Source: Actinomycetes bacterium (lineage in GTDB: Bacteria; Actinomycetota; Acidimicrobiia; Spongiisociales; JAHEDJ01). Taken from it: a stretch of 64,000 nucleotides of DNA. The position numbers were made by a program, and so were the translations under genes. The notes below the pieces were generated by a model that ran no database searches, was not told the DNA's origin, and worked only from the letters and a program-made list of their open reading frames with translations. Positions 2,719 through 56,362 of this stretch are shown in pieces. The stretch's first letter is position 1. Each line of letters starts with the position of its first letter. Where the stretch lies: positions 167,136 through 231,135 of the forward strand of contig JAHEDK010000002.1 of the NCBI GenBank assembly GCA_024641245.1, given 5' to 3'.

Positions 2719-3357
2719 ATGGTCACGTCTTCCGAGCCCTTCGCTGCTCGCCTGGACATCGACTACCCCGAAACGCTCGACAGGTTCACGACGTTCTTCC
2801 GGCTGATCTGGATCATCCCGATCGGTATCATCCTTTCCCTGCTCACCGCAACCGGCAACGAAACCGTGGCCGAGACCGGCGAACACATCGAACGGACGGG
2901 CCTCGGTATCACCGGAGGGCTCGCTCTCGCAACGATGCTGATGATCGTGTTTCGGATGCGGTACCCACGCTGGTGGTTTGACTTCGCTCGCGAGCTGACC
3001 CGCTTCGGAGCGCGGGTCGCTGCCTATTTCTTCTTGCTCACCGATCAGTACCCCTCGACCGTTGACGAGCAAGCGGTGCACCTCGAGATCGATTACCCCG
3101 ACGCGGAGCGAGACCTCAATCGCTGGCTGCCACTGGTGAAGTGGCTGCTGGCCATCCCCCACTACATCGTGCTCGCCGTACTGGCAGCCATCGGGATGGT
3201 CGTCTGGGTCATTGCCTGGTTCGCCATCCTCTTCACGGGACGCTATCCCCGCCCGCTCTTCGACTATCTGGTGGGCGTCGGCCGATGGGGACTGCGAGTG
3301 GAGGCGTACGCGTTCCTGCTGGTTACCGACGAATATCCGCCGTTCAGCCTCAAATAG
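2719..3357 (+). CDS. DUF4389 domain membrane protein
   Basis: RLIWIIPIGIIL and WLLAIPHYIVLAVL hydrophobic repeats. GAGGAGG Shine-Dalgarno just upstream of the ATG. Confidence 0.65.
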   Translation: MVTSSEPFAARLDIDYPETLDRFTTFFRLIWIIPIGIILSLLTATGNETVAETGEHIERTGLGITGGLALATMLMIVFRMRYPRWWFDFARELTRFGARVAAYFFLLTDQYPSTVDEQAVHLEIDYPDAERDLNRWLPLVKWLLAIPHYIVLAVLAAIGMVVWVIAWFAILFTGRYPRPLFDYLVGVGRWGLRVEAYAFLLVTDEYPPFSLK

Positions 3358-4285
3358 GCCGTATCTCGCCCCTGTCGCGCCCGAGGAAGGCCTCAATGGC
3401 TCTGATCATGTGACCGGCATGCGTGAGGGGAGCTTCATGGCGAGCTCCGACCAGTTCCACCACCTCTGGATCGCGCAGCAGCGAGGCCAGTTCGTACTGG
3501 ATTTCGGGAAACATCAATTGATCCTCGGTGTTGATTATCACCAGGGCGGGTTGTTCCAGTTTGCCGATCCATGGGCGTGCATCGAAGCGGTTGACGGCTG
3601 CGCCTGCCAGCCAGTAGAGGTCGGGGTCCCGGTTCTGAAACTGCCAGTAGGCCCAGCGCAAGTGCCTGGGAAGCACCGCCCCGACGTTCGCAAGGTAGGC
3701 GGTTCTCGCCCGGGTGCCTTCGGACCTGCTGAGGCGATCGAAGGCCCTGGCCAGCACGATGACTCCCCCTCCCACGAATCGCTCGGCCGCCGAACGAGCA
3801 GGCCCGGCAGACGTGCCGGCCAGGATCAGCTTGTCGACTCGCTGTGGATGCCGGTGGGCCAGTTCGAGGGCGGCCAGTCCGCCCATCGAGTACCCGGCAA
3901 CGGAGGCCTGGTCGATTCCCAGCGCGGTCATGATGCCGGCCAGATCGTCGGCGAGGTCGGCGATCTCATAACGGGCTCGCAACAGATCCGACTTCCCGGT
4001 GTTCCGGCCGTCCGGCACGATCACCCGGTAGTTCTTGGCGAGCCTGCCGATCAACTTCCACCACACGACGAGACCATGATCCCCCCAGCCGTGGACGAGC
4101 ACCAGCGGCGGAGCTACCGGGTTGCCGGCCTCCCGAACGAAGAACTCATTGTCGCCGACGAACACAGACCGCCCGGGCAGGCGGAGCGGGTGTTCTTGCG
4201 CTTCGGCCGGTTTGAGTTGTGGCTCGGGGCCCAGAAGTCTCCAACCGGCCCACAACAAGATGAGCCGCTTCATCCAGCGCATCAT
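3350..4285 (-). CDS. Alpha/beta hydrolase fold protein
   Basis: HGWGD oxyanion motif, GYSMGG nucleophile elbow and a C-terminal His. Start overlaps the stop of the upstream gene (ATGA). Confidence 0.75.
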
Positions 4286-4731
4286 CGTGGCCCGCCCAGC
4301 GCGTCGCGGGCAAACACGTACTCATCCACAGGCCGGCCTTCAATCAGGTGCTCCTGGATGATCCGTTCCATGACCTCGGTCGTGACCGACCGGTACCAGA
4401 CGCCATCCGGATAGACGACGGCGATGGGTCCTTGCTCACAGATGCGGAAGCAGTCGGCCTTGGTCCTCAGCGCCACGGCCCCCCCGTCGATTCTTCCGAC
4501 CGGGGGCGGTTCGCCCATCGACCCCCGCCACGGGGGAGGCGCACTCGCCAACTCCAGGTCCTTCATGCGCCGCTTCACGTACTCCCATACCCTCGATGAC
4601 TCCTCATACGTCGAGCAGCGCGGCGTCGTCTGTTCTGCGCACAGGAACAAGTGGCGGCGCAAACCGCCGATGGATAGTGCCGAGGCGATCTTCTGCAGCC
4701 GTTCGTCGAGATGAAGCGGTCGGTCACTCAT
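4282..4731 (-). CDS. Thioredoxin-like [2Fe-2S] ferredoxin family protein
   Basis: Cys pattern [13 protein letters not shown] ... [20 protein letters not shown] matches (2Fe-2S) ferredoxin / NuoE-like thioredoxin fold. Confidence 0.55.
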
Positions 4732-4859
4732 GAGCCGTTCACGATACCGGGTTGACGGCGGGGCCTCGCCGGGTCTTGATGAAAAGCCGAGCGACTGACG
4801 GAGACGGTCGCGATCCGACCCGGCCGACTGCGCGGCCGATCGGTCTGATCGCAGCCCCT

Positions 4860-5906
4860 TCAGCTCAGGAGGCGGATGCCCGCTCCGGCCACGATTGACC
4901 CGATCACGGCCGCCGCTTCGGTCCGTTCGGCCTCGAGGGCAGCGAGAAGGAAGTCCAGACGATCGGGGTGGACCGAGATCAGCAGACCTCCCGACGTCTG
5001 TGCGTCGGCGAGTACATCTCTGAGTGGTGACCCGACGTCGCCGAAATCCACGTGATCGATCACGGCGGACATATTCCGTATGGACCCACCCGGCAGGATG
5101 CCCTGGGTGGCGAGGTCGAGCACCCCTTCGATCAGTGGAACCGAGGCGGCGTGGACCTCGGCGCCCACTTCCGCCGCCGATACCATCTCATGCAGATGGC
5201 CGAGCAGTCCGAAGCCGGTGACGTCCGTAGCCGCGTTGACCCCGACCGACGTCATGGCTCGGGCGGCCCCTTCATTGAGGGCGGCCATCACTTCGATGGC
5301 CCGCCTCTCCACCCCGGGATCCACACGGCCGTTCTTGATCGCTGTGGCGATGATGCCGGTACCCAGCGGTTTGGTCAGGACGAGTACATCGCCGGGTTGG
5401 GAGCCGGAGTTGGTGACGAGGCGGTCGGGCTCCACGATCCCGGTGATGGCAAAGCCGTACTTCGGTTCCGGATCGTCGATCGAGTGACCACCGACGAGCG
5501 TGCACCCCGCCAGTTCGAGCACAGCCGCGCCGCCGGCGATCACCTCTTCGAGCAAGTCGAAAGGCAGCGTGTCACGGGGCCATCCGACCAGCTGCAGGGC
5601 GGTGAGCGGAGTCCCTCCCATCGCGTACACGTCGGATAGGGCGTTGGCAGCCGCAATACGGCCCCAATCGTAAGGATCATCGACAACCGGGGTGAAGAAG
5701 TCGACCGTCTGGACGAGAGCCGTACCGCCGGGCTCGACGAACACGGCCGCATCGTCACTGGTCTCGAAGCCGACCAGGAGGTCCGGATGACGGGTGACCG
5801 GTGAGTTGCGCAAACGGCGCAGGACCTGCGCCAGCTCGTCAGAACCGAGCTTGCACGCTCAGCCGCTTCCGTGTGAGTACTGGGTCAGACGCGGTTTCAA
5901 GTCCAT
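4860..5906 (-). CDS. selD: Selenide, water dikinase (selenophosphate synthetase) with in-frame UGA selenocysteine codon at 5859-5861
   Basis: The track ORF (4860..5813) lacks the SelD N-terminus. Extending upstream in the same frame gives ATG 5906 (AGGAGG SD) - [15 protein letters not shown]-[TGA]-ACKLGSDEL..., i.e. the conserved SelD GxG(C/U)xxK active site with UGA in the Cys/Sec position. A stem-loop (AGCUCG-GUUCUGA-CGAGCU) follows 11 nt after the UGA. Confidence 0.8.
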
Positions 5907-10602: not shown

Positions 10603-12186
10603 CTAGCCCGTACGGCCCGGGAATTCCACAATGTCGGCGGTTCGGCTCATCAATCGATCGACCTCGATCATGGCTCGCACGACATTGGCATCGAACCGGC
10701 TGCCGGCGTGGGCACGCAACTCGGCAAATGCCTGCTCCGGCACCATCCGCGGCCGGTGTGGGCGGTCGGAGGTCATCGCGTCGTACGCGTCCGCCACCAA
10801 AACGATTCTGGCGAACAGCGGAATGTCCGCTTCCTTCAACCGGCGTGGATACCCCTCGCCGTCAAGTTGTTCGTGATGACATAACACGGCATTGGCAACG
10901 TCTTCGTGCACAGCTTCGGCTATCAAATCGAACCCGCTGGCCGCATGCGCGCGGATAGCCGCCCAATCCTCATCATTGAGTGATTCGGTCTTGAGTAACA
11001 CCGAATCGGGAACGGCTAGCATCCCGACATCGTGAAGTAGCCCCGTCAATCTGAGCCGTTCGAGCTCGAAAACCTTCAGTTCCAGAACCGTTCCAATCTG
11101 TGTCGACAGCTCCGCAACCCGCACCGAGTGATCGGCCAGCCACGGCGCCCGCATGCGCAAGGCGGCGAGCAACGTTCCAACAACGGGCGTCATCGAGGTG
11201 AGCGACCGGCCCGAGCCGGCAAACGCCGGGGCGCCACCACTCAGCTTCGTGCAATTCTTGCCCGCCCGCTTGGCCGAGTACAGCGCCCGGTCGGCGGCTT
11301 CGACGATGTCCTTGGCCGACTGTGCATCATGTGGGAAGACCGAAACACCGAGGCTGACCGTCACCTGCCCGACACCAGACATGGGCTGGTCGGCAACTGC
11401 CAGACGGATACGCTCTGCCGCCTGGATCGCCCCTTCGGCATCCGTTTCCGGCATGATGATCCCGAATTCTTCACCTCCAACACGGCAGGCGATGTCGACC
11501 TCCCGGATCTGCCTCCGAAACGCTTCACCCATTCCCCGCAGCACAGCATCGCCGGTGCTGTGACCGTAGTTGTCGTTGACCGCCTTGAAATCATCGATGT
11601 CTGCCATGACTACGGCCAGCGGACGGTCGTAGCGACGGGCGCGCTCGAGTTCCTCACTCAGTCGATCAAAGAAGTATCCATGATTCTTGAGGCCGGTTAG
11701 CCAATCGGTGACTGAGAGCGCCTGCAACTGCGTTACCGATTGTTCGAGTTCCTCGTTCCGCTCCCGCTCACGCTCATAGAGCCGGCTGATCTCCTCGAGC
11801 ACCGGTCTACTGGCCTCGGCCGAGAGAAGGCCGGAACCACTGGAAACAGCCCGGATCGCGCCGATCAGATCTGCAGGCTTGCCTTTCACGACATAGGCGG
11901 CAGTGCCGGTGGATACCATTTCGCCGAGATGGGCTACATCACCGAACGAGGCGATCGCGACAATCTCGAGGCGTTGAGCTGAGAGGTCGCGCAACCGCCT
12001 GGCTGCCGTAACAGCCCCCATACCGGGGAGCGCGACGTCGATGACGGCCACCGTCGGGGACATGACGCGAGCGCGCTGGATGGCTTCCTCACCGGTGGAG
12101 GCTTCCCCAACGACTTCGAAACCGGCTCCTGCCAGCACACTTGCCGTGGCGGCACGAGCAGTTGCATCGTCGTCGACGAGCATCAC
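10603..12186 (-). CDS. Response regulator with receiver, GGDEF (diguanylate cyclase) and HD-GYP (c-di-GMP phosphodiesterase) domains
   Basis: REC N-terminus (MMLVDDD...), GGDEF motif (VGGEEFGIIMP), HD-GYP motifs (LLHDVGM ... HHEQLDGEGYP). Confidence 0.85.
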   Translation of the reverse strand: MMLVDDDATARAATASVLAGAGFEVVGEASTGEEAIQRARVMSPTVAVIDVALPGMGAVTAARRLRDLSAQRLEIVAIASFGDVAHLGEMVSTGTAAYVVKGKPADLIGAIRAVSSGSGLLSAEASRPVLEEISRLYERERERNEELEQSVTQLQALSVTDWLTGLKNHGYFFDRLSEELERARRYDRPLAVVMADIDDFKAVNDNYGHSTGDAVLRGMGEAFRRQIREVDIACRVGGEEFGIIMPETDAEGAIQAAERIRLAVADQPMSGVGQVTVSLGVSVFPHDAQSAKDIVEAADRALYSAKRAGKNCTKLSGGAPAFAGSGRSLTSMTPVVGTLLAALRMRAPWLADHSVRVAELSTQIGTVLELKVFELERLRLTGLLHDVGMLAVPDSVLLKTESLNDEDWAAIRAHAASGFDLIAEAVHEDVANAVLCHHEQLDGEGYPRRLKEADIPLFARIVLVADAYDAMTSDRPHRPRMVPEQAFAELRAHAGSRFDANVVRAMIEVDRLMSRTADIVEFPGRTG

Positions 12187-34584: not shown

Positions 34585-35270
34585 TCCAGAAGCTCAGTGC
34601 TTGGTTCGAAGAGCGGATGGGATGGAAGCCGATCTGGACGGCACTGGCGCTCCGCAACATCCCCAAGGTCAACTGGCTGTACACGCTGGGCAGCGCCACG
34701 CTCCTCGTCACAGTGAACCAGATTCTGACCGGCATCCTCCTCACCATCTACTACGTCCCCAGCCCTCAGGATGCCTACAACAGCGTTGCCTTCATAACGA
34801 ACGAGATCACTGCCGGCTGGCTCATCAGAGGGCTGCATCATTGGGGTGCCAGTGCGATGGTCGTCCTGGCCGGACTCCACATGCTGCGGGTGGTCTTCCA
34901 CGGCGCCTATAAGTTCCCCCGCGAAATCACCTGGTTCACCGGACTCGGCCTCCTGGCCGTGACGATGGCCTTCGGATTCACCGGGTACTTGCTGCCGTGG
35001 GATCAGAAGGCTTACTGGGCTACCACGGTGGGTACCCGAATGCTGGAGGTGACACCCGTCATCGGTGATTGGCTGCTCCGGATCGCCCGCGGTGGGGAAG
35101 AGCTGTCGGCCGTGACGCTCACCCGGTTCTACGGAACCCATGTATGGGTGCTCCCGTCGGTGCTCCTGCTACTCCTGGGTATCCACCTCTTTCTGGTCGT
35201 CCGCGTCGGCATCAGCGCACCTCCGACACCCAAGGAGACAGACGAGAAGCCCAAAGTGTGGTTCGAATAA
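34581..35270 (+). CDS. Cytochrome b6-like (N-terminal four-helix di-heme b subunit), module 1
   Basis: ATG overlaps the Rieske stop (ATGA). His pairs on helix B (HHWGASAMVVLAGLH) and helix D (THVWVLPSVLLLLLGIH). Confidence 0.85.
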   Translation: MIQKLSAWFEERMGWKPIWTALALRNIPKVNWLYTLGSATLLVTVNQILTGILLTIYYVPSPQDAYNSVAFITNEITAGWLIRGLHHWGASAMVVLAGLHMLRVVFHGAYKFPREITWFTGLGLLAVTMAFGFTGYLLPWDQKAYWATTVGTRMLEVTPVIGDWLLRIARGGEELSAVTLTRFYGTHVWVLPSVLLLLLGIHLFLVVRVGISAPPTPKETDEKPKVWFE

Positions 35271-37669
35271 TGAAACGCGAAGAACGCTCCAAATACCTCG
35301 AGGAGTACGCAGAGGACAAGAAGAAGGGCATCCCGTTCTTCCCGGACGCCGTGTTCAAGGACGTCCTGGTTGCATTGATCGTGTTGATCATTCTCATCGG
35401 CCTCGCCTACTTCGCAGGCGCCCCGCTCGAAGAACGTGCGAATCCATCCGACAGCGACTACACACCTCGACCGGAGTGGTACTTCCTCTGGCTCTTCCAA
35501 CTGCTCAAGTACTTTCCGGGCAACCTCGAGTTCGTCGGCGTCATCCTCCTGCCTGCCCTCGGATTCGCCATCCTCTTCGCCATGCCGTACCTGGACAGGA
35601 CCAAGCTCCGTCACTTCCGCAACCGCAGTTGGGTGATGGCATCAACCGGCGTCGCCGTGGTAGCCATGGGGTTTCTCACAGTCCAATCCATCAGGGAGAC
35701 CCCGGCGCCGGCCGACGTGAGCGGCACCATCAACGCCGCCGTTCTCTTCACCGAGAATTGCTCCGTATGCCACGGCACATCGATCGATGTCCCGACCGGG
35801 ATAAACCTGCATGAGACGATTGCCGGGGGTCACGAGGGGATGCCGGCCTTCGCAGCCACTCTGTCGACCGATGAAATCGATGCCCTCGCAGGATTCCTGG
35901 TCTCTCCGCAGGGAGGGGCGATATTCACCGCCAACTGCGCGGCATGCCACGATTCGAGTGACCTCGCCGCCGCCACCCCGTTCCAGCTCCAGGACGCCCT
36001 GAATCAAGGCACCGCCTACGCGCCGCATGATGGACTCGACATACCCGACTGGTCCGAGGTCCTCTTCGGCCAGGATCGAACCGCGCTCCTCAACTTCTTG
36101 CTTGCTCCGGACGGCCAGCGCCTCTACACGCTCTACTGCTCCGAATGTCACGGAACCTCGATCAGCTGGGAAGGGGAACGAGACGAACTCGAAGCGCTCA
36201 TCCGCCAGGGCGGCAACCACCTCGAGATGACCCAGTGGAGGGACGTGCTGCCGGAGGACCAGATCACCGAACTCGCTCTGTTCGTCGTCGAACCATCCAC
36301 GGCTCCCGGGGGCGAGCAACTGTTTGCACAGCACTGCTCGAGTTGTCACGGCGTGCGGGTGCCGAGCGCTCCCGACATAGAAACCGCCTACAACATCATC
36401 GCCGACGGTGCAGAGCACCGATCGATGCCTGTCTGGGGCGACGTTCTCACCGAGGAGCAGCTAACCGCACTCACAACCTACACGCTCGAAGCCAGTCGCG
36501 GCACACCGGTCATCGTCGGCCAGCAACTGTTCGGTCAATTGTGCTCGTCGTGCCACGGTGACTTCGGTGAAGGCGGCCCGAACCCCGCCGACCCCATCAG
36601 AATCATCCCTCCGATCAGTACGGCGAGCTATTTGGAGACCCGGGACGACGCCACGTTGCGCGCCATCATCTCAAAGGGTCAGTCGGACCAGGGCATGTCG
36701 CCTTTCCTGGAGAGCGAAGGTGGACCGCTGACCGAGGACGAGGTGAATGCCGTGGTTGCGTTCCTCCGTTCGTGGGAATCGGATCCGCCGGTCGATTTGC
36801 CGCCCGATCTTGCCCGTGGACCCGTCGCGGGTGGAAGCGTGCAGGTGTATGCGGCGTTCTGCGCCCAATGCCACGGAGCAGATGGGGCAGGCGGCCCCGA
36901 TTTGGTCGGTCCTTCCTTGACCTCGGCAGAATTCCAGGATTCCTTCACCGATGAGCAACTGCACGAGGCCATCGACCTCGGCCATGCTGCTACTTCGATG
37001 ATCGCCTGGGGCGAGGTCCTCACCGCCGATCAGATCCAGGGACTCGTCGACCACATCCGCTCGCTGGGCGGACGCGGTACCCTGCAGACGATCGTCTACG
37101 AACGCGACATTGCTCCGATCTTCCAGGCGTCTTGCGCCGGTTGCCACGGGTCGTCGGGGGGTTGGGATGCATCCACCATGGAGTCCGTGATCGGCAGCGG
37201 AAGCAGCGGGCCGGCCGTCGTCGCCGGCGATCCCGACGGGAGTCATCTCGTGCAGCGCCTTCGTGGCGAGGGCAACTTGATGCCCCCGGCCGGAGCGCTG
37301 CCGGACAACCAACTCGATCTGATCGTGCAATGGATTGCCGGGGGAGCAACCGCCGAAGTGACAACAGGCGACGCGCAATCCGGCGGCGGCGACATCGGTG
37401 ATTACACGTGGACGAAGGATGTCCAGCCGATCCTGCAGGCCAGTTGCGCGGCCTGCCACGGATCGTCCGGGGGTTGGTACGCGGGGACGTACAGCTCCAC
37501 GATCAACAGCGGCGACAGCGGTCCGGCCGTCGTCCCTGGGAATGCCGACGACAGTTCGATGATCCAACGACTGCTCGGCAACGGCAACCTGATGCCGCCG
37601 GGAGCTCCGCTTTCGGAAGAACAGATCGCCGTCCTGATCTACTGGGTCAACAGCGGCGCCAAGGAATAG
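35270..37669 (+). CDS. Cytochrome b subunit IV-like domain fused to an octaheme c-type cytochrome (two C-terminal PSCyt1-like domains)
   Basis: TAATG overlap with cyt b6. Three TM helices with Qo-site PEWYF motif, then 8 CxxCH (CSVCH, CAACH, CSECH, CSSCH, CSSCH, CAQCH, CAGCH, CAACH). The last two sit in CxxCHG..GG-containing repeats. Confidence 0.8.
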   Translation: MKREERSKYLEEYAEDKKKGIPFFPDAVFKDVLVALIVLIILIGLAYFAGAPLEERANPSDSDYTPRPEWYFLWLFQLLKYFPGNLEFVGVILLPALGFAILFAMPYLDRTKLRHFRNRSWVMASTGVAVVAMGFLTVQSIRETPAPADVSGTINAAVLFTENCSVCHGTSIDVPTGINLHETIAGGHEGMPAFAATLSTDEIDALAGFLVSPQGGAIFTANCAACHDSSDLAAATPFQLQDALNQGTAYAPHDGLDIPDWSEVLFGQDRTALLNFLLAPDGQRLYTLYCSECHGTSISWEGERDELEALIRQGGNHLEMTQWRDVLPEDQITELALFVVEPSTAPGGEQLFAQHCSSCHGVRVPSAPDIETAYNIIADGAEHRSMPVWGDVLTEEQLTALTTYTLEASRGTPVIVGQQLFGQLCSSCHGDFGEGGPNPADPIRIIPPISTASYLETRDDATLRAIISKGQSDQGMSPFLESEGGPLTEDEVNAVVAFLRSWESDPPVDLPPDLARGPVAGGSVQVYAAFCAQCHGADGAGGPDLVGPSLTSAEFQDSFTDEQLHEAIDLGHAATSMIAWGEVLTADQIQGLVDHIRSLGGRGTLQTIVYERDIAPIFQASCAGCHGSSGGWDASTMESVIGSGSSGPAVVAGDPDGSHLVQRLRGEGNLMPPAGALPDNQLDLIVQWIAGGATAEVTTGDAQSGGGDIGDYTWTKDVQPILQASCAACHGSSGGWYAGTYSSTINSGDSGPAVVPGNADDSSMIQRLLGNGNLMPPGAPLSEEQIAVLIYWVNSGAKE

Positions 37670-44534: not shown

Positions 44535-44804
44535 GACAGACGAGTGTACGCACGCAGCTTCGGGCGCCGAAACGCGACCCCGGATAAACACCACCCGTTC
44601 TCTCCCTTTCGCCACCTTTTCAGGGTTTTATGGCGGGTTTCAACCCAGGCAGGGCCCAAGTGCCCCAGGGCGCGAGGACTTTGCGCTGTTGGTGTGTTTC
44701 CGATATACCCGTATCCTCTGCAATGAGAAACGGGGGACCGACCCTGAATCGCCGCCGGAACGGCTCATTCACACGGTGATCCCCATGGAGGAAGGCACAG
44801 CAAA

Positions 44805-46844
44805 ATGAACGCGACCCTCGGGTATCTCTCGATCCTGGCCGCAGTGGTGGGAGCGCTCGGTATCACCGTGCGGGGTTTCATCGCGATGCGTGATCCGGAG
44901 CGGGCGAACAAAGGGTATCTGGGGTTGCCCGTCATACTGTTCGTGTCCGGAGCCGTCGGCGCAATGTTCTTCCTGGAACTCGGGCTTCTCACCGACGACT
45001 TCTCGATCAAGTACATCGCCAACAACTCCTCGACCACCACCCCGTTTCTCTTCAAGGTCGCCTCTGGATGGGCATCGCTGGAGGGATCGATCGTTTTGTG
45101 GGGTCTGGTCCTGGCCGGCTTCACATTCGCCGTATACGCACGGTTCTTCAGAAGCGAAAGCGGCGACCGGCTCGCAGCAGGGGCTCTGGCGATCATGGGG
45201 CTCATCTCTCTTTACTTCTTCGGGCTAATGGCCACAATCTCCGACCCATTCGCTCGCTGCGTGCAAACGTTCAGCGACGGTGTCGGTTGTGTGACCGGCG
45301 AGAACGCGATCCTCGCCAACGTGATCTCCTCCCCGATCGAAGGGCGCGGCGCCAACGCACTGCTCCAGAACCATTGGCTCATGGCCCTGCATCCACCAAC
45401 GCTCTACGTCGGCTATGTCGGGCTCAGCGTCCCCTTTGCGTTTGCCATCTCGGCGCTCCTCCTCAAAACCACCGGGGCGGCCTGGCTGACCCGGACCCGC
45501 AACTGGACGGTGTTCGCCTGGATGTTCCTCACTGCCGGCATTGTTCTCGGTGGGCTCTGGTCGTATGAGGTGCTCGGCTGGGGCGGCTACTGGGCATGGG
45601 ACCCGGTTGAGAACGCCTCCTTCATGCCGTGGCTGGTCGCGACTGCCTTCTTGCACTCGTCTGTCGTGCAGGCGAGGCGCGGGATGCTGCAGTCGTGGAA
45701 CTTCGTCCTCGTCATCACGACCTTCGCGCTCACGATTCTCGGCACCTTCTTGACCCGCTCCGGCGTAATCGTTTCGGTTCACAGCTTCTCGCAGTCCGCC
45801 ATCGGGCCTGCCCTGTTGATCTTCCTGGTGGTCGTGCTGCTGGGATCGCTCGGGCTCTTCGCGTCAAGGGCTCACACCATCGCCTCTTCTCCCCGGCTCG
45901 ATTCACTCAGCAGCCGGGAAGGGGTGTTCTTGTTCAACAACCTTCTGCTCACCGTGTTCGCGTTCATGGTGCTGACAGGGACGCTCTACCCGCTCTTCGT
46001 TGAGGCGTTCTCCGACTCGACGGTGGGCGTCGGTCGTCCGTTCTTCGATCGCATGGCGATCCCGTTGTCCTTCCTGTTGCTGCTGGCGATGGGCATCGGA
46101 CCGGTCTCGCCCTACCGGGCGGCGAGCGCCCGCGTCGTGTGGGAGCGGATTCGCTGGCCCGTCCGGGTTGCCCTCGGCGCCGCCGCGCTGGCCGTCGTGT
46201 TCGGCTATCGGAACTCGTTCCTGCTGCTCGGTGTTCTGGCCGCCGTGTTCGTCATGGGCGTGATCATCCGCAACCTCTACGACGCCGCCCGGACCAGGGC
46301 AGACAAACTCGGTATCGGACGGAGACAGGCCGCCGCCCGGATCATGCGCGGCGACCCGCACTATTGGGGTGGCCAGATCTCCCACCTGGGCGTTGCGATA
46401 CTGGCACTGGGCATCGCCTTCTCAGCCAACCTGTCGGAGACCGCCACGGTGACCATCGACGCCGGAGATACGGTCAACTTCGCCGGCTTCGAGGTGACCT
46501 ACGAACAGGAGTTCAGCCGCCAGGAACCGGGCCGGTTCGTCACCGGAGCAGACATCACGGTGACCCGGGACGGGTCGGTCGTCGGTACGTACCAGCCACG
46601 GCTGAATCAGTACGGCAACACGCGGGAATCGATCGCCACCCCAGAGGTCGACACCATGTTCTCAGGCGACCTGTACCTCTCGCTCCGCAGCATCGATCCT
46701 TCATCCGTGACCCTCGAGGTCTATTGGTTCCCGTTCATCTGGCTCATCTGGGTTGGAGGCTTCCTGGCGGCCGCCGCCGGGGTCTGGGGATTCGCGGTCA
46801 AGAAGCCCGAACGTTCGGTTGCACGGGACGACACGCGTGTCTGA
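44805..46844 (+). CDS. ccmF: Cytochrome c-type biogenesis heme lyase CcmF
   Basis: About 15 TM helices, WWD domain (WGGYWAWDPVEN), conserved periplasmic His. Confidence 0.9.
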   Translation: MNATLGYLSILAAVVGALGITVRGFIAMRDPERANKGYLGLPVILFVSGAVGAMFFLELGLLTDDFSIKYIANNSSTTTPFLFKVASGWASLEGSIVLWGLVLAGFTFAVYARFFRSESGDRLAAGALAIMGLISLYFFGLMATISDPFARCVQTFSDGVGCVTGENAILANVISSPIEGRGANALLQNHWLMALHPPTLYVGYVGLSVPFAFAISALLLKTTGAAWLTRTRNWTVFAWMFLTAGIVLGGLWSYEVLGWGGYWAWDPVENASFMPWLVATAFLHSSVVQARRGMLQSWNFVLVITTFALTILGTFLTRSGVIVSVHSFSQSAIGPALLIFLVVVLLGSLGLFASRAHTIASSPRLDSLSSREGVFLFNNLLLTVFAFMVLTGTLYPLFVEAFSDSTVGVGRPFFDRMAIPLSFLLLLAMGIGPVSPYRAASARVVWERIRWPVRVALGAAALAVVFGYRNSFLLLGVLAAVFVMGVIIRNLYDAARTRADKLGIGRRQAAARIMRGDPHYWGGQISHLGVAILALGIAFSANLSETATVTIDAGDTVNFAGFEVTYEQEFSRQEPGRFVTGADITVTRDGSVVGTYQPRLNQYGNTRESIATPEVDTMFSGDLYLSLRSIDPSSVTLEVYWFPFIWLIWVGGFLAAAAGVWGFAVKKPERSVARDDTRV

Positions 46845-47250
46845 TTCGATTCGCAAGATCGCGGCGGCGGTGGTGACTATCGGCCTGGCGGTTGTCGTCG
46901 TAATCGGCCTCATCCAGGGCGACCGAACCGATGAAGATCGCGCCCGGTCCATCGGCTCCAGAGTGAAGTGTCCCGTTTGCCAGGGCGTAGCCATTGCCGA
47001 TTCTCCTTCGGAAACTGCCAGAGCGATGATGGACGTCGTCGAAGAGCGAATCGCAGACGGGTGGTCGGACAGACAGATCATCGACTACTTCGCGGAGCGC
47101 TACACCGACAGCATCGTCATCGACCCGCCCTTCAGCGGGAATACGCTGCTCGTCTGGCTGCTGCCGATCCTGGCAGTAGTCGCAGGCTTCTTCATGATCT
47201 TCTCCCGGCGCAAGACGCCGGTGCCAAAACCCGATGAGGTGAAACAGTGA
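46837..47250 (+). CDS. ccmH: Cytochrome c-type biogenesis protein CcmH
   Basis: GTG overlaps the ccmF stop (GTGTCTGA). CPVCQG motif, then a TM anchor. Confidence 0.75.
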   Translation: MSDSIRKIAAAVVTIGLAVVVVIGLIQGDRTDEDRARSIGSRVKCPVCQGVAIADSPSETARAMMDVVEERIADGWSDRQIIDYFAERYTDSIVIDPPFSGNTLLVWLLPILAVVAGFFMIFSRRKTPVPKPDEVKQ

Positions 47251-48080
47251 GCAACTTCAACCAGGAGTCATACGATCGGGCGGTCGCCCGCAAGGAACTG
47301 GCCTTGACCGATCTCGAAGAGCTGGCCCAGCAGGTGGACGACGGTGAGATCGACGCGCCCACCGCGGCAGGACTCCGGAGCGGCTACGAGGCTGAACTCG
47401 GCGCGGCCGAAGCCGAACTGGCCAGACTCGGTCCACCGCCCACTCCCAAGAAGTCGCCCGGTCAAGCGTCGACCAAACGTGCGCCGAGCGAGAACGGACG
47501 GCCGGCCCGGAAGTCGAGCGACTTGAATACTCGTCTGCTGGTCGGCGCCGGCATTCTCATCGTCGCCCTCGTCGTGATTCTCATCTCGGTCCAGAATTCG
47601 GCGCAGCCGGATCCGGCCGCGATGGGCACCCAGGTGACGACGGCAAGCGGCGAGGACCCCTGCGCGGAGCTGGCCGACGCGTTGACCAGTCACTCCGACA
47701 ACGGCTTTCGTCTCGCACTGGCCGACTGCTACGCAGACGTCGGAAACGCCATGTCGGCGATCGAGCACTACCGGGCCGTCGCCGATGCCGAAGGTGCCGC
47801 CGACGGCGAGGTCGCACGGGCAAACGTGGGACTCGGCTTCCTCAACCTTCAAATCGGTGAGCTCGCCAAGGCCGCCGACTACATGCGCGTGGCGCTCGAG
47901 CGCGACGCCGCCAACGTCGAAGCTCAATACTTCCTGGGCATGATGCTCGTCTACGACCTCGGCGATCCGGCCGCAGGAGCCCCATATCTCGAGTCGGTAC
48001 TCGCAACTCCCGACCTGCCGGAGACGGTGATCCTCGAAATCCAGGCAGCGCTCGATGTCGCGGCGGGCGAGGGCTCATGA
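47247..48080 (+). CDS. CcmI/CycH-like TPR-containing cytochrome c biogenesis accessory protein
   Basis: ATGA-type overlap with ccmH. N-terminal coiled region, a TM helix, C-terminal TPR-like helices. Confidence 0.45.
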   Translation: MSNFNQESYDRAVARKELALTDLEELAQQVDDGEIDAPTAAGLRSGYEAELGAAEAELARLGPPPTPKKSPGQASTKRAPSENGRPARKSSDLNTRLLVGAGILIVALVVILISVQNSAQPDPAAMGTQVTTASGEDPCAELADALTSHSDNGFRLALADCYADVGNAMSAIEHYRAVADAEGAADGEVARANVGLGFLNLQIGELAKAADYMRVALERDAANVEAQYFLGMMLVYDLGDPAAGAPYLESVLATPDLPETVILEIQAALDVAAGEGS

Positions 48081-48685
48081 CCAACACGGACCTCGCCGTC
48101 GAGCCGACCCCGGAAGCACCGCAACGCAACCTCAAACTGTGGATAACGACCGGCCTGGCGGCGGTGGCCTTCATCGCGCTCGCCCTCGTGTTCAACAGCC
48201 GGTTTGGCGTTGACCCCCGGGTCGTCGAATCCCCGCTCATCGGGCAACCCGCCCCGAACCTCGAACTCGAGGTTCTCGAGCAGGACGCCATCTCTGGCCC
48301 CATGGCAATGTCGGAATTTCGCGGCAGCGTGGTCGTGGTCAACTTCTTCGCCTCTTGGTGCATCCCCTCCTGTCGCGATGAGCACCCCCATCTCACCGCG
48401 GCCGCCGCCGACTACGCCGACCGCGGCGTCCGGTTCGTTGGAATAGCCACCAGCGACACACCCGAAGACACACGCGGGTTCCTCGACGCGCTCGGGTGGG
48501 GAACCAACTACACCTACCTCAACGATCCCGATGCCAGGGCAGGAGTCGAGTTCGGCACATTCGGAGTTCCCGAAACGTTCGTGATCGACCGGGAGGGGCT
48601 CGTCACGCACAAGTTCACGGGGCCGGTCACATACGATGAACTGGTCGTCGAGTTGGAGAAGGCGTTGACCGAGACGGGTTCATGA
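48077..48685 (+). CDS. ccmG: Thiol:disulfide interchange protein CcmG/DsbE (TlpA-like thioredoxin), unusual CxxxC (WCIPSC) active site
   Basis: Membrane anchor plus thioredoxin fold. The active-site DNA reads TGG TGC ATC CCC TCC TGT. Confidence 0.75.
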   Translation: MTNTDLAVEPTPEAPQRNLKLWITTGLAAVAFIALALVFNSRFGVDPRVVESPLIGQPAPNLELEVLEQDAISGPMAMSEFRGSVVVVNFFASWCIPSCRDEHPHLTAAAADYADRGVRFVGIATSDTPEDTRGFLDALGWGTNYTYLNDPDARAGVEFGTFGVPETFVIDREGLVTHKFTGPVTYDELVVELEKALTETGS

Positions 48686-48794
48686 CGGCGTGCCCGGGAC
48701 AAATGGCCCCACCGTCGAGGCACTAGGCTCCTATGCGCCGCCGGAAGGTCGGGCGAACATTGGTCCGGCGTAGGATCCTGCAGGGGAGACAGGG

Positions 48795-49484
48795 ATGCAG
48801 AGAACAAACGAGCTGACACAAGGCGCGCGGCGGCTGGCCTGGTTGACACTTTTGACGCTCGCATGGTTGTTGTGGATGAGTCAGGCGGCCGCCCACGCCC
48901 AGGAACTCCCGGTACGGGATGATCCGTTCTGGAAGACGGACACCTGCCTCGGCTGCCATCAGCAGTCGGACCTGTCGGTGACGCTGCCATCCAACGAGAC
49001 GCTGCGCCTCGCCGTGTATAGAGGCGCGTACGAAGATTCGGTGCATGGTCGAACAGGAGTGGCCTGCCGCAATTGCCATCTCGACATCACGGGGTATCCG
49101 CACCCTGATCTCACCGCCGGAAGCCTGGCCGAGTTCTCAGAACAGCAGGCCAGTTCTTGCGAGATGTGTCACCGTGACCACTACGGCAAAGTGGCGGATG
49201 AGCTGCATGAGGAGTCCGGTGGGTTGCTGTGCTTCGAGTGTCATGATCCGCACACCACCGGCACCGGCTCCGTCTCGGCAGAAGTGCAAGCCTCCTGCAA
49301 CGCCTGCCACTCCGAGGGTATCGCCATTCCTGTCGAGGGGATTCATGCCGCGCCCGAGGTACCTGTCGCGGAGACCACAAGCGGCGTTACAATCCTGCTC
49401 ATCCTCGGCGGAATCTTCGTCGGTTTCGTCGTCCTCGTCTGGCTGGCGACGGTGGCTTGGCGTGTCGTGCGCGACCGAAGCTGA
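48795..49484 (+). CDS. Pentaheme c-type cytochrome with signal peptide and C-terminal TM anchor
   Basis: CLGCH, CRNCH, CEMCH, CFECH, CNACH. C-terminal hydrophobic helix (ILLILGGIFVGFVVLVWLATVAW). Confidence 0.8.
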   Translation: MQRTNELTQGARRLAWLTLLTLAWLLWMSQAAAHAQELPVRDDPFWKTDTCLGCHQQSDLSVTLPSNETLRLAVYRGAYEDSVHGRTGVACRNCHLDITGYPHPDLTAGSLAEFSEQQASSCEMCHRDHYGKVADELHEESGGLLCFECHDPHTTGTGSVSAEVQASCNACHSEGIAIPVEGIHAAPEVPVAETTSGVTILLILGGIFVGFVVLVWLATVAWRVVRDRS

Positions 49485-49625
49485 TCGGGCCCGTTTCCGC
49501 AGGTTAGCTTGTAGCAATTCCCAATCTTGTGCGCCCTTTCACATGGGTCGAATGACCCTACGCGATCTGCGCGCGGATCCGTCATCATGTCGGTACACGA
49601 GTCGAGTAGCTCCCGGGGAGGAAGC

Positions 49626-51698
49626 ATGAGTCGATTTCGACACACACGCTTGGTTGTGCTTGTCGCCCTGCTGATGGTCTTAGCGGCCTGCACGAGCAGC
49701 GCCGACGACACCACCACTACGGGAGCGGAAGGGTCAACGCCCACGACAGCTCCACCGGTCGTCGAGCCGGCGGAATCCGAGCTCGTGGTTCCGTTCCTAG
49801 CGGCCTGGGTCGGTTCTGGACACAACGACGCGACTGCTGAAGCCTTCGTGCACTGGAATGAGGACGACCCCCAGGTCATTCCGACCAGTTGCGCGAAGTG
49901 CCACAGCACCCCCGGTCACCTCGATTTCCTCGGAGCCGACGGCAGCCCGTTCGGCAGCGTTGAAGCCGACGCCCCCATCGGGACCACGATCCAATGCGAA
50001 GCGTGCCACAACGATGTCACGATCTCCCTGGACAGCGTCGTGATGCCATCGGGTCTCGAACTCACCGGCCTCGGCGACGAATCCCGTTGCATGAACTGCC
50101 ACCAGGGCAGGGAGTCCAAGATCAGCGTGGACGCATCGATTACCGAAGCGGGCGTCGAAGAGGACACCGTCTCCGAGGATCTGGGTTTCCGGAACATCCA
50201 CTACTTCGCGGCTGCCGCCACCAAATACGGTACCGAAGCCAAGGGTGGCTATGAGTACGAGGGCAAGACGTACGATGCGTTCTTCGTCCACGTCGAGGGA
50301 TACTCGACCTGTATTCAGTGCCATGATCCGCACACGCTGGAACTGAAGATCGCCGAATGCTCGACATGCCACACCGGTGTCGCCACGGTTGAGGATCTCC
50401 GAGATGTCCGTATGCCGGGATCACTCGTCGACTTCGACGGAGACGGGAATCTCGAAGAGGGCATCTACTACGAACTCGAGGGCGTGCGGGGACTCTTGCT
50501 CCAGGCCATTCAGGCGTATGCCTCCGAGGTGGCGGGAACCGGCATCACCTACGATGCCAACGCCTACCCGTACTTCTTCGATGAGGCCGGCAAGGGCTTT
50601 GGCGCGTGGACCCCGCGTCTGCTCAAAGCGGCGTACAACTATCAGGTGTCCCTCAAGGACCCGGGAGCATTCGCGCACGGTGGCAAGTACATCCTCGAGT
50701 TGATGTACGACTCGATCGAGAACCTCAACGAAGCCATCTCGTCGCCCATCGACATGACGGCGATGCACCGAATCGACCACGGGCACTTCGCCGGGTCCGA
50801 GGAAGCCTTCCGGCACTGGGACGAGGATGGCGCCGTGCCGGCTTCGTGCTCACGGTGCCACTCGGCTGGAGGCGTGCCGCTGTATCTGCAGGAAGGCGTG
50901 ACGATAACCCAGCCAACTTCCAACGGGTTCAACTGCTCGACGTGCCACAACAGCACGAGCGAGTGGACCCGGTATGAGGTCCTCGATGTGACCTTCCCGA
51001 GCGGTGCGACTATCGACAGCGGCGACCAGAACGCCAACCTTTGCATGACCTGTCACCAGGGCCGTGAATCCGGCGCAAGCGTCGACCGGCGGATCGGAGA
51101 CACCGGGGCGGATACCGTCAGCGACACACTTGGCTTCATCAACGTGCACTACCTGCCGGCGGGCGCCACGCTCTTCGGCAGCGAGGCAGCGGGTGGCTAC
51201 CAGTACGCCGGGCAGACCTATGCCGGAGCCAACGATCACCCCATCGCCACGTGCACGGGTTGCCACAGCGCCCACACACTACAGGTTGAGGTTGAGGCCT
51301 GCGGGGGTTGCCATCAGGGGACGAACTCTGAAGAAGACCTGCAGGACATCCGCATCACCGCCGGCGACTTCGATGGTGACGGCGACGAGGCCGAGGGCAT
51401 CGCCGGAGAGGTCGAGACCATGCGCGAAGCCCTGCTGGCGGCGATGCAGGCGTATGCGGACGCCACGGACGGCGTGAGCCCGATCGTGTACGACGCCCAC
51501 GCCTATCCGTACTTCTTCAACGACGCCGGTGAGAGCTATTCGACCTGGACGCCGCGTCTGCTGAGGGCCGCCTACAACTACCAGTACGCAACGAAGGACC
51601 CTGGTGCGTTCGCCCACAACCCGGCCTACGTGCTCGAGTTGTTGTATGACTCGCTGGCGGACATCGGCGCCGACGTGACGGGGCTGATCAGGCCGTAG
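49626..51698 (+). CDS. Decaheme c-type cytochrome lipoprotein with internal pentaheme duplication
   Basis: GGGAGGAAGC SD before the ATG. Lipobox LAAC. 10 CxxCH. Repeated blocks (NIHYFAAAATKYGTEAKGGYEYEGKTY / NVHYLPAGATLFGSEAAGGYQYAGQTY; AYPYFFDEAG...TPRLLKAAYNYQ occurs twice). Confidence 0.8.
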   Translation: MSRFRHTRLVVLVALLMVLAACTSSADDTTTTGAEGSTPTTAPPVVEPAESELVVPFLAAWVGSGHNDATAEAFVHWNEDDPQVIPTSCAKCHSTPGHLDFLGADGSPFGSVEADAPIGTTIQCEACHNDVTISLDSVVMPSGLELTGLGDESRCMNCHQGRESKISVDASITEAGVEEDTVSEDLGFRNIHYFAAAATKYGTEAKGGYEYEGKTYDAFFVHVEGYSTCIQCHDPHTLELKIAECSTCHTGVATVEDLRDVRMPGSLVDFDGDGNLEEGIYYELEGVRGLLLQAIQAYASEVAGTGITYDANAYPYFFDEAGKGFGAWTPRLLKAAYNYQVSLKDPGAFAHGGKYILELMYDSIENLNEAISSPIDMTAMHRIDHGHFAGSEEAFRHWDEDGAVPASCSRCHSAGGVPLYLQEGVTITQPTSNGFNCSTCHNSTSEWTRYEVLDVTFPSGATIDSGDQNANLCMTCHQGRESGASVDRRIGDTGADTVSDTLGFINVHYLPAGATLFGSEAAGGYQYAGQTYAGANDHPIATCTGCHSAHTLQVEVEACGGCHQGTNSEEDLQDIRITAGDFDGDGDEAEGIAGEVETMREALLAAMQAYADATDGVSPIVYDAHAYPYFFNDAGESYSTWTPRLLRAAYNYQYATKDPGAFAHNPAYVLELLYDSLADIGADVTGLIRP

Positions 51699-51707
51699 CG
51701 TGACAGA

Positions 51708-51733
51708 GGGGGCCGGGCACACACCCGGCCCCC
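51708..51733 (+). terminator. Hairpin GGGGGCCGGG-CACACA-CCCGGCCCCC 10 nt after the decaheme stop, followed by TCGTTGTT
   Basis: Perfect 10-bp GC stem, then a T-rich tract, between convergent genes. Confidence 0.45.
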
Positions 51734-51745
51734 TCGTTGTTCCCC

Positions 51746-51794
51746 CTTCTTGCGTCACTTTGGGGCTCGATGTGCCCGGAAGTGACGCAAGAAG
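51746..51794. repeat. REP-like palindromic element (CTTCTTGCGTCAC - 23 nt - GTGACGCAAGAAG)
   Basis: Same TTCTTGCGTCA core as 7471-7525. It abuts the DUF559 stop codon. Confidence 0.5.
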
Positions 51795-51796
51795 TC

Positions 51797-52720
51797 TCAA
51801 GCAGCCTGGTGGATCGCGGCCAGGACTTCCGCAACAACGGAATCCGGCCGGCCAATCAGGTCCCACCAGGTGTATCGAAGCGTTCTCCAGCCGAGTAGCT
51901 CTGTCTGGTTCTGGATCACGCGGTCTCTGCGAAACGTGGGGCGATCCATGTGAAACGCTTCGGAGTCGAGTTCGATCCGCAGGCGGTGCTCGATGAAGGC
52001 GAAGTCGGCCCGGCATACGAACGTCCCGTCAGGGTTTCTGATCTCCACCTGTGGCGTCGGTTGCGGCGTACGGAGCCCCCACGACCGGCGAAACAGATCT
52101 TCCAGTTCGCTCTCGGTGACGCCATCCCAGTGGAGCCGCTGCTCGACGAACGGCCGTATGACCCCGACTCCCCTGCGGCCGCGCCTGGCGACCCGGCCGA
52201 CCAGCGCGGCAACACCTTCGAGCGTAAAGCTCCGAGTTCTCAGACCTCTATCGAGAGCCGACTCGACCAGCCACGGCGCGCTGGCGCCCAGATCGACGAC
52301 CGTTCGGACCGGAGTGGTCACCGGGATACCCGAGACCTCCGCCGAGTCCTCGGGAGCGAGATCGGTCGACTCGTGAACGACGAACTCCTGATGCGCCCGA
52401 TTCCAGCGGGGCATCACTACCTCGATGCGCGGAGGCTTGCGATCAACCAGGCCGTGCAGGAATGCAGCGGTCTGGTGGGAGGCCAGCGCCAGATCGCCTG
52501 CGGTCGTGGTCGCGATGAGCACGGCCTGATGCCAGTCGCGCGGCACGGCGGGGAAAACGTACGTGCGGTAGGCCACCCGCTCGAGCACTCCGCGGGACGT
52601 CAAACCTTTCAACTGATCTGAGCTGAGCCCTGCCTCAATGACAGCAGCACGATCGACTACGCCGTGTCGCAAGGCGGCCCTCTGAGTGAGAATCTGCAAC
52701 GGTGTCATGCCCAACACCAT
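51797..52720 (-). CDS. DUF559 (Vsr-like endonuclease fold) protein with N-terminal AbiEi-like HTH region
   Basis: C-terminal DUF559 pattern (FVCRADFAFIEHRLRIELDSEAFH). The track ORF extends to 52912 through the REP elements. Start placed at MVLGMTPLQIL. Confidence 0.55.
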   Translation of the reverse strand: MVLGMTPLQILTQRAALRHGVVDRAAVIEAGLSSDQLKGLTSRGVLERVAYRTYVFPAVPRDWHQAVLIATTTAGDLALASHQTAAFLHGLVDRKPPRIEVVMPRWNRAHQEFVVHESTDLAPEDSAEVSGIPVTTPVRTVVDLGASAPWLVESALDRGLRTRSFTLEGVAALVGRVARRGRRGVGVIRPFVEQRLHWDGVTESELEDLFRRSWGLRTPQPTPQVEIRNPDGTFVCRADFAFIEHRLRIELDSEAFHMDRPTFRRDRVIQNQTELLGWRTLRYTWWDLIGRPDSVVAEVLAAIHQAA

Positions 52721-52753
52721 CAAGGTTGGGTGTGACAAATCCCGAACCCAGTG

Positions 52754-52872
52754 AACTTGCGTCAGAAACGGGCGCCGGCCGCCCCAAACTGACGCAAGAA
52801 AGGGATAGGGGCGCCACCTTCTCGTTCTTGCGTCAGTGTTCCGAGCAACGGGCCCAGAAGTGACGCAAGAAT
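52754..52872. repeat. Two tandem REP-like palindromic units (arms at 52754-65/52789-801 and 52823-36/52859-72)
   Basis: Four copies of the TTGCGTCAG/CTGACGCAA core in alternating orientation, upstream of the DUF559 gene. Confidence 0.5.
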
Positions 52873-52939
52873 GAGGAGAGACAGAGAAGTGGGGAGCCTT
52901 TCGGCTCCCCACTTCGGGTGTTCGTTAAGCGACTCTTGT

Positions 52940-53935: not shown

Positions 53936-54249
53936 TTCACCCTCCTCCCGATCGGGCGCTAGCCCGACGTCATGGGAGCCGACCGCTCCCTCCAGTCCCT
54001 TTCCAAACCGTTCCCCGTGCCGCCCTGCGACTCGGGGTGCCCAATCAACGATCAGGATAATCAGACCTTTTAGGTCAAAATATGCCGATAGCACTTGGCG
54101 TATTCATCACTCTATGTGTTTGTCGACACGGCGTCAAGTTGGAGAAGGGCCCCATAACGACAGGGCCGTTCGGCCCTATCAACGAGGCACACCGCACTAC
54201 CGAAATCGGCCGGAACAGGTATTATTTATCTCAGGGTGGCGGAGGATAA

Positions 54250-55752: not shown

Positions 55753-55936
55753 TGACAGACCCGACCTCCATCACCCGGCGAATGCCATTGGGCCCTACAG
55801 GACACAATTCGACCGCGGGTACCGTCGCGTTAGGACCCGCGGGTGCTGTCAGGAACCGCGGATTGGGCCACATGGGAGAGAGGCGAGGGCCCGCAATGGT
55901 TTGTGAATGCCGTGAGTGGTCGAGAGGGGGCCCACG

Positions 55937-56362
55937 GTGTTGATCACCCGCGAGGTCGACTACGCCGTGCGCTGTGTTCTCGACGTAGCCCGCACCGGGC
56001 ACACCTCCACCGGAGCAGTCGCCGAACGGGCCGGGATACCCCCATCGATCCTCGGGCGCATCGTGGCGGCTGTATCGAAAGCCGGCATACTCACTACCAG
56101 ACGAGGAGTCAAAGGCGGCATCGATCTTGCGCGCGATCCAAGCGAGATCAGCCTGCTTGACGTCATAGAGGCGGTGCAAGGTCCGCTCTTCGTCAACATC
56201 TGCTGCGAGCATCCCGAAACCTGTGACGCCGCTACCAACTGTCCGATCCGACCCGTCTGCGAGGACGCCTTCGACGAGCTGAGACGGGTCTTCTCGGTGA
56301 CCTACGACACATTGCTCAACGGCGGCCACGTTCCTCTCCGCCCGTTCGTCCAAGAGGAGTAG
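55937..56362 (+). CDS. Rrf2 family transcriptional regulator (IscR/NsrR-like, three conserved Cys)
   Basis: N-terminal wHTH (LITREVDYAVRCVLDVA). Cys triad (NICCEHPETCDAATNCPIRPVC), the spacing of Fe-S-binding Rrf2 proteins. Confidence 0.75.
   Translation: MLITREVDYAVRCVLDVARTGHTSTGAVAERAGIPPSILGRIVAAVSKAGILTTRRGVKGGIDLARDPSEISLLDVIEAVQGPLFVNICCEHPETCDAATNCPIRPVCEDAFDELRRVFSVTYDTLLNGGHVPLRPFVQEE

Follow-up and report, generated by a model that had tools for sequence, protein, structure and literature searches.

Does the selD gene of this bacterium begin downstream of a UGA codon, as standard gene calling has it, or does its coding sequence run through that codon? The question is raised by a stretch of 64,000 nucleotides (positions 167,136 to 231,135 of contig JAHEDK010000002.1, GenBank assembly GCA_024641245.1), which was analysed as a whole and is called the window below. 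The open reading frame (ORF) mechanically listed for selD in the window spans positions 4860-5813 and encodes 317 amino acids from a TTG start codon. We consider it highly probable (about 0.92) that the gene is in fact a complete selenocysteine (Sec)-type selD, coding for selenide, water dikinase (selenophosphate synthetase), and that a UGA codon in its catalytic loop is read as selenocysteine in an uncultured, Acidimicrobiia-like actinobacterium. This reading is carried by the gene structure and the homology of the product, by a conserved UGA whose flanking codons on either side are under purifying selection, and by covariation in two downstream hairpins.

Reading frame and identity of selD

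The features that define the full-length gene are as follows.

5920-5915, minus strand: Shine-Dalgarno sequence AGGAGG, read directly, 8 nucleotides before the start codon
5906-5904, minus strand: ATG start codon of selD, read directly
4860..5906, minus strand: complete coding sequence of selD (348 codons, Sec16 among them) and its stop codon at 4862-4860
5861-5859, minus strand: in-frame UGA, codon 16, predicted to be read as selenocysteine, at the position of Cys17 in Escherichia coli SelD

The minus-strand sequence leading into the gene is GGAAGGAGGTGCCCAAG-ATG, and 15 sense codons separate this ATG from the in-frame TGA. The open frame reaches 57 codons 5' of the TGA, and the alternative in-frame starts it contains (GTG 6005, TTG 5951 and GTG 5915) have neither a ribosome-binding site nor homology support. 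In close relatives, a GGAAGGAGGTG-like sequence is found at an unchanged distance from the start, and ATG, GTG or TTG is present in relatives at the start codon or at an adjacent codon. The TTG of the listed ORF corresponds to Leu32 of the long reading, and ORF callers consequently drop the first 31 codons of the gene.

The 348-residue read-through product matches the NCBIfam equivalog model TIGR00476 with 405.7 bits (cutoff 125) over model positions 1-309, with model position 1 falling on residue 6 of the product, and it matches NF002098 with a score of 379.7 (cutoff 299). The PF00586 (AIRS) and PF02769 (AIRS_C) domains are recorded for an identical 317-amino acid product. When aligned to E. 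coli SelD (PDB 3u0o), the read-through product covers residues 7-341 (E = 6e-85), and the segment SHGSG-U-A-C-K lies over SHGAG-C17-G-C19-K20, such that U16 corresponds to Cys17, C18 to Cys19 and K19 to Lys20. The motifs RLTQYSHG-G-x-x-CK, DDAAV, TVDFFTP, NA(L/I)SD(V/I)(Y/F)AMGG and TDVTGFGL of the E. coli protein are all kept, and with TDVTGFG they include the conserved Asp-containing motifs for nucleotide and metal. The residue at position 17, whether Cys or Sec, and Lys20 are essential parts of the N-terminal glycine-rich loop of E. coli SelD. The E. coli protein is of the Cys type, with Cys17 encoded by UGC or UGU and with no selenocysteine insertion sequence (SECIS), whereas the gene in the window has a UGA codon and a putative SECIS.

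These observations agree with the initial annotation of this DNA, which had placed an AGGAGG-preceded ATG at 5906 and an in-frame UGA at 5859-5861, exactly where they are found. Its further statement that the listed ORF begins at Leu32 and lacks the catalytic N-terminus is borne out by the ORF list and by the alignment with E. coli SelD. It had also proposed an alignment with SelD proteins as a check, and this gives a full-length match from the start of the model in which the loop 5' of TTG 5813 is aligned. Homology and the conservation of the UGA described below both support the central proposal, namely that selD encodes Sec at the position of the catalytic Cys and is cut short by standard ORF calling.

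We compared the gene with DNA loci drawn from species-representative genomes (80 loci), metagenomes (80 loci) and close relatives (12 loci). The codon at the position of U16 is TGA in 107 of 142 related selD loci and TGC or TGT in the other 35; among the genome loci alone, TGA is present in 41 of 64. The TGA-type loci come from Acidimicrobiia, other Actinomycetota, Gemmatimonadota, Deltaproteobacteria (including Anaeromyxobacter), Methylomirabilota, Chloroflexota, Latescibacterota and Nitrospinota. Recurrence of a TGA codon at the same alignment position in so many loci is more than chance would provide. Identity to the closest species-representative genomes reaches only 62-63%. In a large protein collection, homologues with 76-98% identity are all called at 298-320 amino acids and cover 80-92% of the query, with the same N-terminal cut, and homologues at about 60% identity include full-length proteins of approximately 347 amino acids.

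If the codons upstream of the UGA are translated, they should carry the marks of a protein-coding sequence. In 99 distinct TGA-type sequences, the first and second positions of codons -10 to -1 have an entropy of about 0-0.9 bits, except for a freely varying codon -7, whereas the third positions of nine of these ten codons have 1.4-1.9 bits. Farther 5' than codon -11, the entropy is close to its maximum at every position, at about 1.9 bits, and conservation ends roughly 11 codons 5' of the UGA. This pattern is the signature of a translated and selected peptide that starts there. The close relatives provide a finer view. They are 81-98% identical, and 11 of the 12 loci are usable because the twelfth begins after the region. 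The Shine-Dalgarno sequence, the start codon, the TGA and both hairpins are kept in all 11, and the substitutions 5' of the UGA are nearly all synonymous. Judged from these alignments, the codons on both sides of the UGA are under purifying selection.

Two hairpins downstream of the UGA codon

Two adjacent hairpins, designated H1 and H2, follow the UGA within the coding sequence.

5851-5833, minus strand: hairpin H1 (AGCUCG / GUUCUGA / CGAGCU), 6 base pairs with a 7-nucleotide loop, 7 nucleotides after the UGA
5832-5816, minus strand: hairpin H2 (GGCGCAG / GUC / CUGCGCC), 7 base pairs with a GUN triloop at 5825-5823, abutting H1

H1 is the hairpin that the initial annotation had put forward as the SECIS. 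The structure is real, conserved and covarying, but it is probably not the hairpin recognized by SelB, since the adjacent H2, a second and stronger hairpin that was omitted at the time, fits a SECIS better. The spacing of 11 nucleotides given for H1 is right only if the U of the UGA is counted as 1, and 7 nucleotides actually lie between the UGA and the hairpin.

The predicted folding energy is -8.4 kcal/mol for H1 (2 of 200 shuffled sequences are as good), -11.3 kcal/mol for H2 (0 of 200) and -20.4 kcal/mol for the two folded jointly. Counted from the A of the UGA, the loop of H1 is 13 nucleotides away and that of H2 is 33 nucleotides away. Evidence for covariation was sought by explicit pair counting in an ungapped alignment of 41 TGA-type sequences. 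In the tandem arrangement of H1 and H2, 86% of the cells are paired, compared with 28-40% after the partners have been shifted by 1-3 columns, and compensatory changes occur in 10 of the 15 pairs; none of 500 shuffles matches the observed values. Taken separately, H1 has 82% of its cells paired and compensatory changes in five of eight pairs, and H2 has 91% paired and compensatory changes in five of seven.

The compensatory changes alter amino acids in both hairpins. In H2, the third base of an Ala codon changes together with the first base of an Arg, Gly, Cys or Ser codon, and in H1 a Leu-to-Ile change is paired with a Glu-to-Asp change. Among the 99 TGA-type sequences, synonymous sites are constrained in codons +2 to +4, +9 to +11 and +13 to +14, and the third base of the Val codon in the H2 loop is free. 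A nested alternative, with an outer stem (alignment columns 11-15 with 39-43) placed around H1, was rejected. Although 85% of its cells are paired, it has no compensatory changes and is broken by variation in column 39.

The pairing of H2 also depends on whether the gene is of the Sec or the Cys type. The mean number of pairs is 6.4 of 7 in Sec-type sequences and 3.4 of 7 in Cys-type sequences. An H2 with at least six of seven pairs and a GU loop is present in 83 of 96 Sec-type sequences and in 3 of 34 Cys-type sequences (Fisher p = 2e-16, an optimistic value because the test ignores phylogeny and the sequences are related). G is the first loop nucleotide in all 74 relatives with a well-formed H2, and 71 of these have a GUN triloop.

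The published consensus for bacterial SECIS (bSECIS) elements calls for a loop of 3-9 nucleotides on an upper stem of 4-16 base pairs, an energy of -7.5 kcal/mol or lower, a G within the first two loop positions that is usually followed by G or U, and a distance of 16-37 nucleotides from the UGA to the loop (PMC13188914 Fig. 2). H2 lies within all four of these constraints. In the window, H1 agrees with the consensus in its loop, stem, energy and loop G, but not in its distance.

H2 also resembles the SECIS of E. coli fdhF, which is likewise a hairpin within the coding sequence after the UGA and exposes G-U in a small loop. The apex CAGGUCCUG of H2 is similar to the fdhF apex GCAGGUCUGC, a sequence verified in 5,413 E. 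coli genomes, for which CGCAGGUCCUGCG is the counterpart here. G23 and U24 of the fdhF SECIS are contacts of SelB (PMC8659212), and the corresponding loop nucleotides here, counted from the U of the UGA, are 37 and 38. There are further differences. H2 has a triloop rather than the tetraloop of fdhF, the bulged U is not evident, and H1 is an extra conserved hairpin between the UGA and the recognition hairpin. In the E. coli SECIS, 11 nucleotides lie between the UGA and the SelB-binding minihelix, and only 7 precede H1, so the geometry differs.

Two-stem models have been published previously for the bSECIS elements of SelD, with a stem 2 apex of 3-4 nucleotides (Mariotti et al. 2015, PMC4561486, Supplement S6). 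In the Clostridiales model, stem 1 is followed by stem 2, and only the latter fits a bSECIS, an arrangement that matches H1 and H2. In the Proteobacteria model, stem 2 is nested within stem 1; the matching outer stem here is the one that has no compensatory change, whereas the tandem H2 covaries. On these comparisons, H2 is probably the SelB-binding SECIS hairpin, and H1 may be a conserved accessory or spacer hairpin.

The opposite assignment, in which selD is of the Sec type but SelB binds H1 and H2 is incidental or a mere stabilizer, strikes us as unlikely. H1 occupies nucleotides 11-29 (U of UGA = 1) and thus sits approximately where the E. coli minimal SECIS does (nucleotides 15-31; PMC8659212), but its loop is too close to the UGA, at 13 nucleotides, for the consensus range of 16-37. 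Its loop opens with G-U in the window, whereas the usual apex in relatives is CCC or CCG, and only 17 of the 51 copies that are well formed have a G at loop position 1 or 2. The compensatory changes in five of its eight pairs, including the Leu-to-Ile change matched by Glu-to-Asp, speak for this assignment, and yet at least four contiguous pairs from the base form in only 51 of 96 sequences. Pairing of H1 is better in Sec-type than in Cys-type sequences (5.15 versus 4.12 of 6), a contrast that is far weaker than the one for H2.

A tentative extension of the H2 assignment, which we put at clearly below even odds, is that the SECIS of this SelD clade is an obligatory two-hairpin unit, in which H1 would be a covarying spacer at the mRNA entrance that brings the H2 triloop into the working distance of SelB. 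If this is true, H1 would take part in the recoding itself rather than arise as a side effect of the K-L...E-L coding sequence.

Five other Sec-type loci do not keep the register of H1 and H2 (alignment columns 17-52). These loci (L024, L028, L033, L037 and L080), from Actinomycetota, Gaiellales and Thermoleophilia, share the motif SHGSGU-ACKLGPKDLGxVM and apparently use another hairpin, such as CCCAAG-GA-CUUGGG, which points to a second SECIS solution in the Sec-type SelD family.

Selenocysteine machinery and competing explanations

Several results weigh against a Sec-type selD with H2 as its SECIS. ARAGORN finds no tRNA-Sec in the 64-kb window, and indeed no tRNA gene at all. A tblastn search of the window with verified Mycolicibacterium SelA and SelB proteins gives no match, and Pfam scans of its large ORFs reveal neither SelA nor SelB. 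Applied to the alignment of 41 sequences, RNAalifold predicts only three pairs, all of them in H2; for these sequences the explicit count of pairs tells more. Rfam searches of the whole window at the gathering threshold and of positions 5760-5900 at permissive settings return no SECIS family, although Rfam may not model bacterial SECIS elements. Finally, the loop of H2 is 14 nucleotides farther from the UGA than G23 and U24 of fdhF and is near the far limit of the allowed spacing. The permissive Rfam search also produced a match to a flavivirus frameshift element at E = 4.6, which is meaningless.

The tRNA-Sec result can be read against a control, because ARAGORN detects tRNA-Sec near selD in 14 Cys-type actinomycete loci and its negative outcome for the window is therefore meaningful. 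More widely, none of 40 Sec-type loci has a tRNA-Sec within 10 kb of selD, and the Sec machinery is also missing within this distance in the Sec-type loci of Acidimicrobiia. One Acidimicrobiaceae locus with a Cys-type selD (L014) does have selA and selB beside the gene, and the Sec trait thus exists in the class. From established knowledge of Sec decoding, we infer that selA, selB and selC lie elsewhere in this genome.

The linkage of selD to Sec genes differs between the two types. In Cys-type actinomycete loci, including those of Mycobacterium, Streptomyces, Rhodococcus, Pseudonocardia and others, tRNA-Sec lies within about 3.7 kb of selD and is adjacent to it in approximately half of the cases (loci L044, L051, L056, L059-L061, L064, L066, L071-L074, L076 and L079). 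All 14 of these loci also have selA and/or selB near selD, and L071 has in addition a molybdopterin oxidoreductase gene. For the Sec-type selD genes of Acidimicrobiia and other phyla, tRNA-Sec, selA and selB were not found within 10 kb.

A scan of the whole window for in-frame TGA codons flanked on both sides by coding-like composition yields only selD. The other candidates are either antisense artefacts or the stop codon of GlnE, behind which the next gene lies in the same frame. No TGA falls between the CxxCH motifs of the multihaem cytochromes in the window. GCAGGTNCTGC is matched once more at 58844-58854, on the strand opposite a run of cytochrome CxxCH codons, and this match is attributed to chance.

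How else might the UGA be explained? A reassigned genetic code is rejected, because TGA terminates 34 of the 55 predicted genes in the window and is the commonest ordinary stop codon there. It is very improbable that the UGA is a true stop, with SelD starting at TTG 5813 or later and the upstream 15 codons forming a separate ORF or remaining untranslated. This is the model that standard ORF calling adopts and that the 317-amino acid database products reflect, but the resulting protein would have no loop with Cys/Sec17 and Lys20, even though this loop aligns perfectly just upstream. Moreover, the Shine-Dalgarno sequence is positioned for ATG 5906, codons -10 to -1 are under protein-level purifying selection and Cys-type homologues run continuously through the region. 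A pseudogene, or a sequencing or assembly error that created the TGA, is hardly credible. Nothing more than the stop codon itself speaks for this, whereas the TGA is shared by 107 independent loci, including the 11 close relatives from different samples, and the frame is intact and under selection on either side. Somewhat less remote, but still improbable, is read-through without Sec machinery, in which a near-cognate Cys or Trp would be inserted with the help of the downstream structure in a lineage that may have lost Sec decoding. The missing Sec genes in the window and within 10 kb of related Sec-type selD genes would be in keeping with such a loss, and structure-assisted read-through of selenophosphate synthetase (SPS) genes has a precedent in the proposal made for hymenopteran SPS1-UGA (PMC4561486). 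However, genes for the Sec machinery are often unlinked to selD, and the locus with selA and selB indicates that the trait is present in the class. In addition, the G-U recognized by SelB is kept in the H2 triloop of all 74 well-formed copies, and the element is shared by Deltaproteobacteria, among them Anaeromyxobacter, a genus reported to be rich in selenoproteins (PMC1794560).

For the preferred reading of a UGA decoded as selenocysteine, the following course of events is proposed. Translation would start at ATG 5906. With the UGA at codon 16 in the ribosomal A site, H1 would be at the mRNA entrance and H2, with the G-U of its triloop exposed, would be right behind it. The SECIS would bind the SelB-GTP-Sec-tRNA(Sec) complex, presumably through contact of SelB with H2, and Sec would be delivered in competition with release factor 2 and inserted at residue 16. 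Sec16, Cys18 and Lys19, equivalent to Cys17, Cys19 and Lys20 of the E. coli enzyme, would then form the selenide-binding, ATP-dependent active-site loop. One consequence is that SelD would require its own product, selenophosphate, for its synthesis.

Neighbouring genes and significance

Two genes downstream of selD are transcribed in the same direction.

4282..4731, minus strand: gene for a 149-amino acid protein with the pattern C-x7-C...C-x3-C, co-directional with selD; NF041612 match with E = 1.8e-13, below the cutoff, and no Pfam match
3350..4285, minus strand: alpha/beta hydrolase gene, co-directional, overlapping the gene for the 149-amino acid protein by 4 nucleotides; orthologues have Abhydrolase families

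The initial annotation had described these genes as encoding a thioredoxin-like 2Fe-2S ferredoxin and an alpha/beta hydrolase, which is about right, considering that the ferredoxin matches are weak and below the cutoff. Upstream and divergent from selD are genes for an extracytoplasmic function (ECF) sigma factor and its probable partner, followed by genes for an EamA transporter and MgtE.

In every close relative, a gene of about 1.17 kb for a major facilitator superfamily (MFS) transporter is located between selD and the ferredoxin-like gene, and it is missing from the window (4776-4856). For example, the gene is present in locus L166, which has about 93% DNA identity to the window, and in a blastn alignment the window passes from 4856 to 4776 while L166 passes from 10958 to 12132. 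This looks like a recent deletion in the window. Another variant is found in Logan contig L081 (SRR12825369), where the truncated selD ORF of 954 nucleotides differs from that of the window by one nucleotide. The 93 nucleotides just 5' of this ORF differ at 23 positions, with the UGA and both hairpins kept, and the sequence farther upstream is unrelated. Either the 5' end of selD has recombined or the assembly is chimeric.

The region from about 44800 to 64000 is a dense block of genes for cytochrome c biogenesis and electron transfer. It includes CcmF (44805-46844) and at least seven multihaem c-type cytochromes (49527-51698, about 52900-54100 on the minus strand, 54250-55752, 56424-57296, 57293-58309, about 58300-59157 and 61800-62909), along with a regulator of the Rrf2 type, a protein with NHL repeats and a cytochrome b (62902 to the end of the window). 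A cytochrome b/c fusion is located further upstream, at 35069-37669. A possible role of the block is that of a module for extracellular or respiratory electron transfer in an Acidimicrobiia-like genome. Within it, an ORF at 51797-52912 (minus strand) encodes the C-terminal domain of an AbiEi antitoxin and matches REase_MTES_1575 weakly. Another ORF that was picked by composition, at 58285-58806 (minus strand), only shadows two multihaem cytochrome genes on the plus strand and does not represent a real gene.

Returning to selD, the gene in the window has the same features as the Sec-containing SelD genes of other bacteria, such as Haemophilus influenzae, Deltaproteobacteria, Clostridia and Rubrobacter. 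These likewise have a UGA where E. coli encodes Cys17, within the glycine-rich N-terminal loop, followed directly by a SECIS in the coding sequence, and they share the AIRS and AIRS_C body of the protein; the amino acids conserved after Sec (ELAQVLR) mirror the RNA structure. Nothing essential differs in the window, where the lineage is an uncultured Acidimicrobiia-like one and the Sec machinery is unlinked to selD. SelD and FdhA are reported to be the two most widespread bacterial selenoproteins, and every Sec-decoding organism that lacked FdhA in one survey had a Sec-type SelD (PMC1794560). Recent tools treat the occurrence of SelD as a selenoprotein in many organisms as routine (PMC12013277). 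Sec-type SelD is thus already well known in many bacteria, and the case is a correct re-annotation rather than a discovery, one that leaves the current view of selenoprotein biology unchanged.

Its value for annotation is that the correct product is a selenoprotein of 348 residues and not a 317-residue enzyme without its active-site loop. The comparative data also point to which of the two hairpins is the candidate site for SelB, and the A-Q-V-L-R motif that is held in place by H2 provides a clean example of an RNA signal that constrains a protein sequence. For the organism, the finding means that this uncultured Acidimicrobiia-like lineage is probably a user of selenocysteine, and such use predicts that selA, selB, tRNA-Sec and possibly further selenoproteins are encoded elsewhere in its genome.

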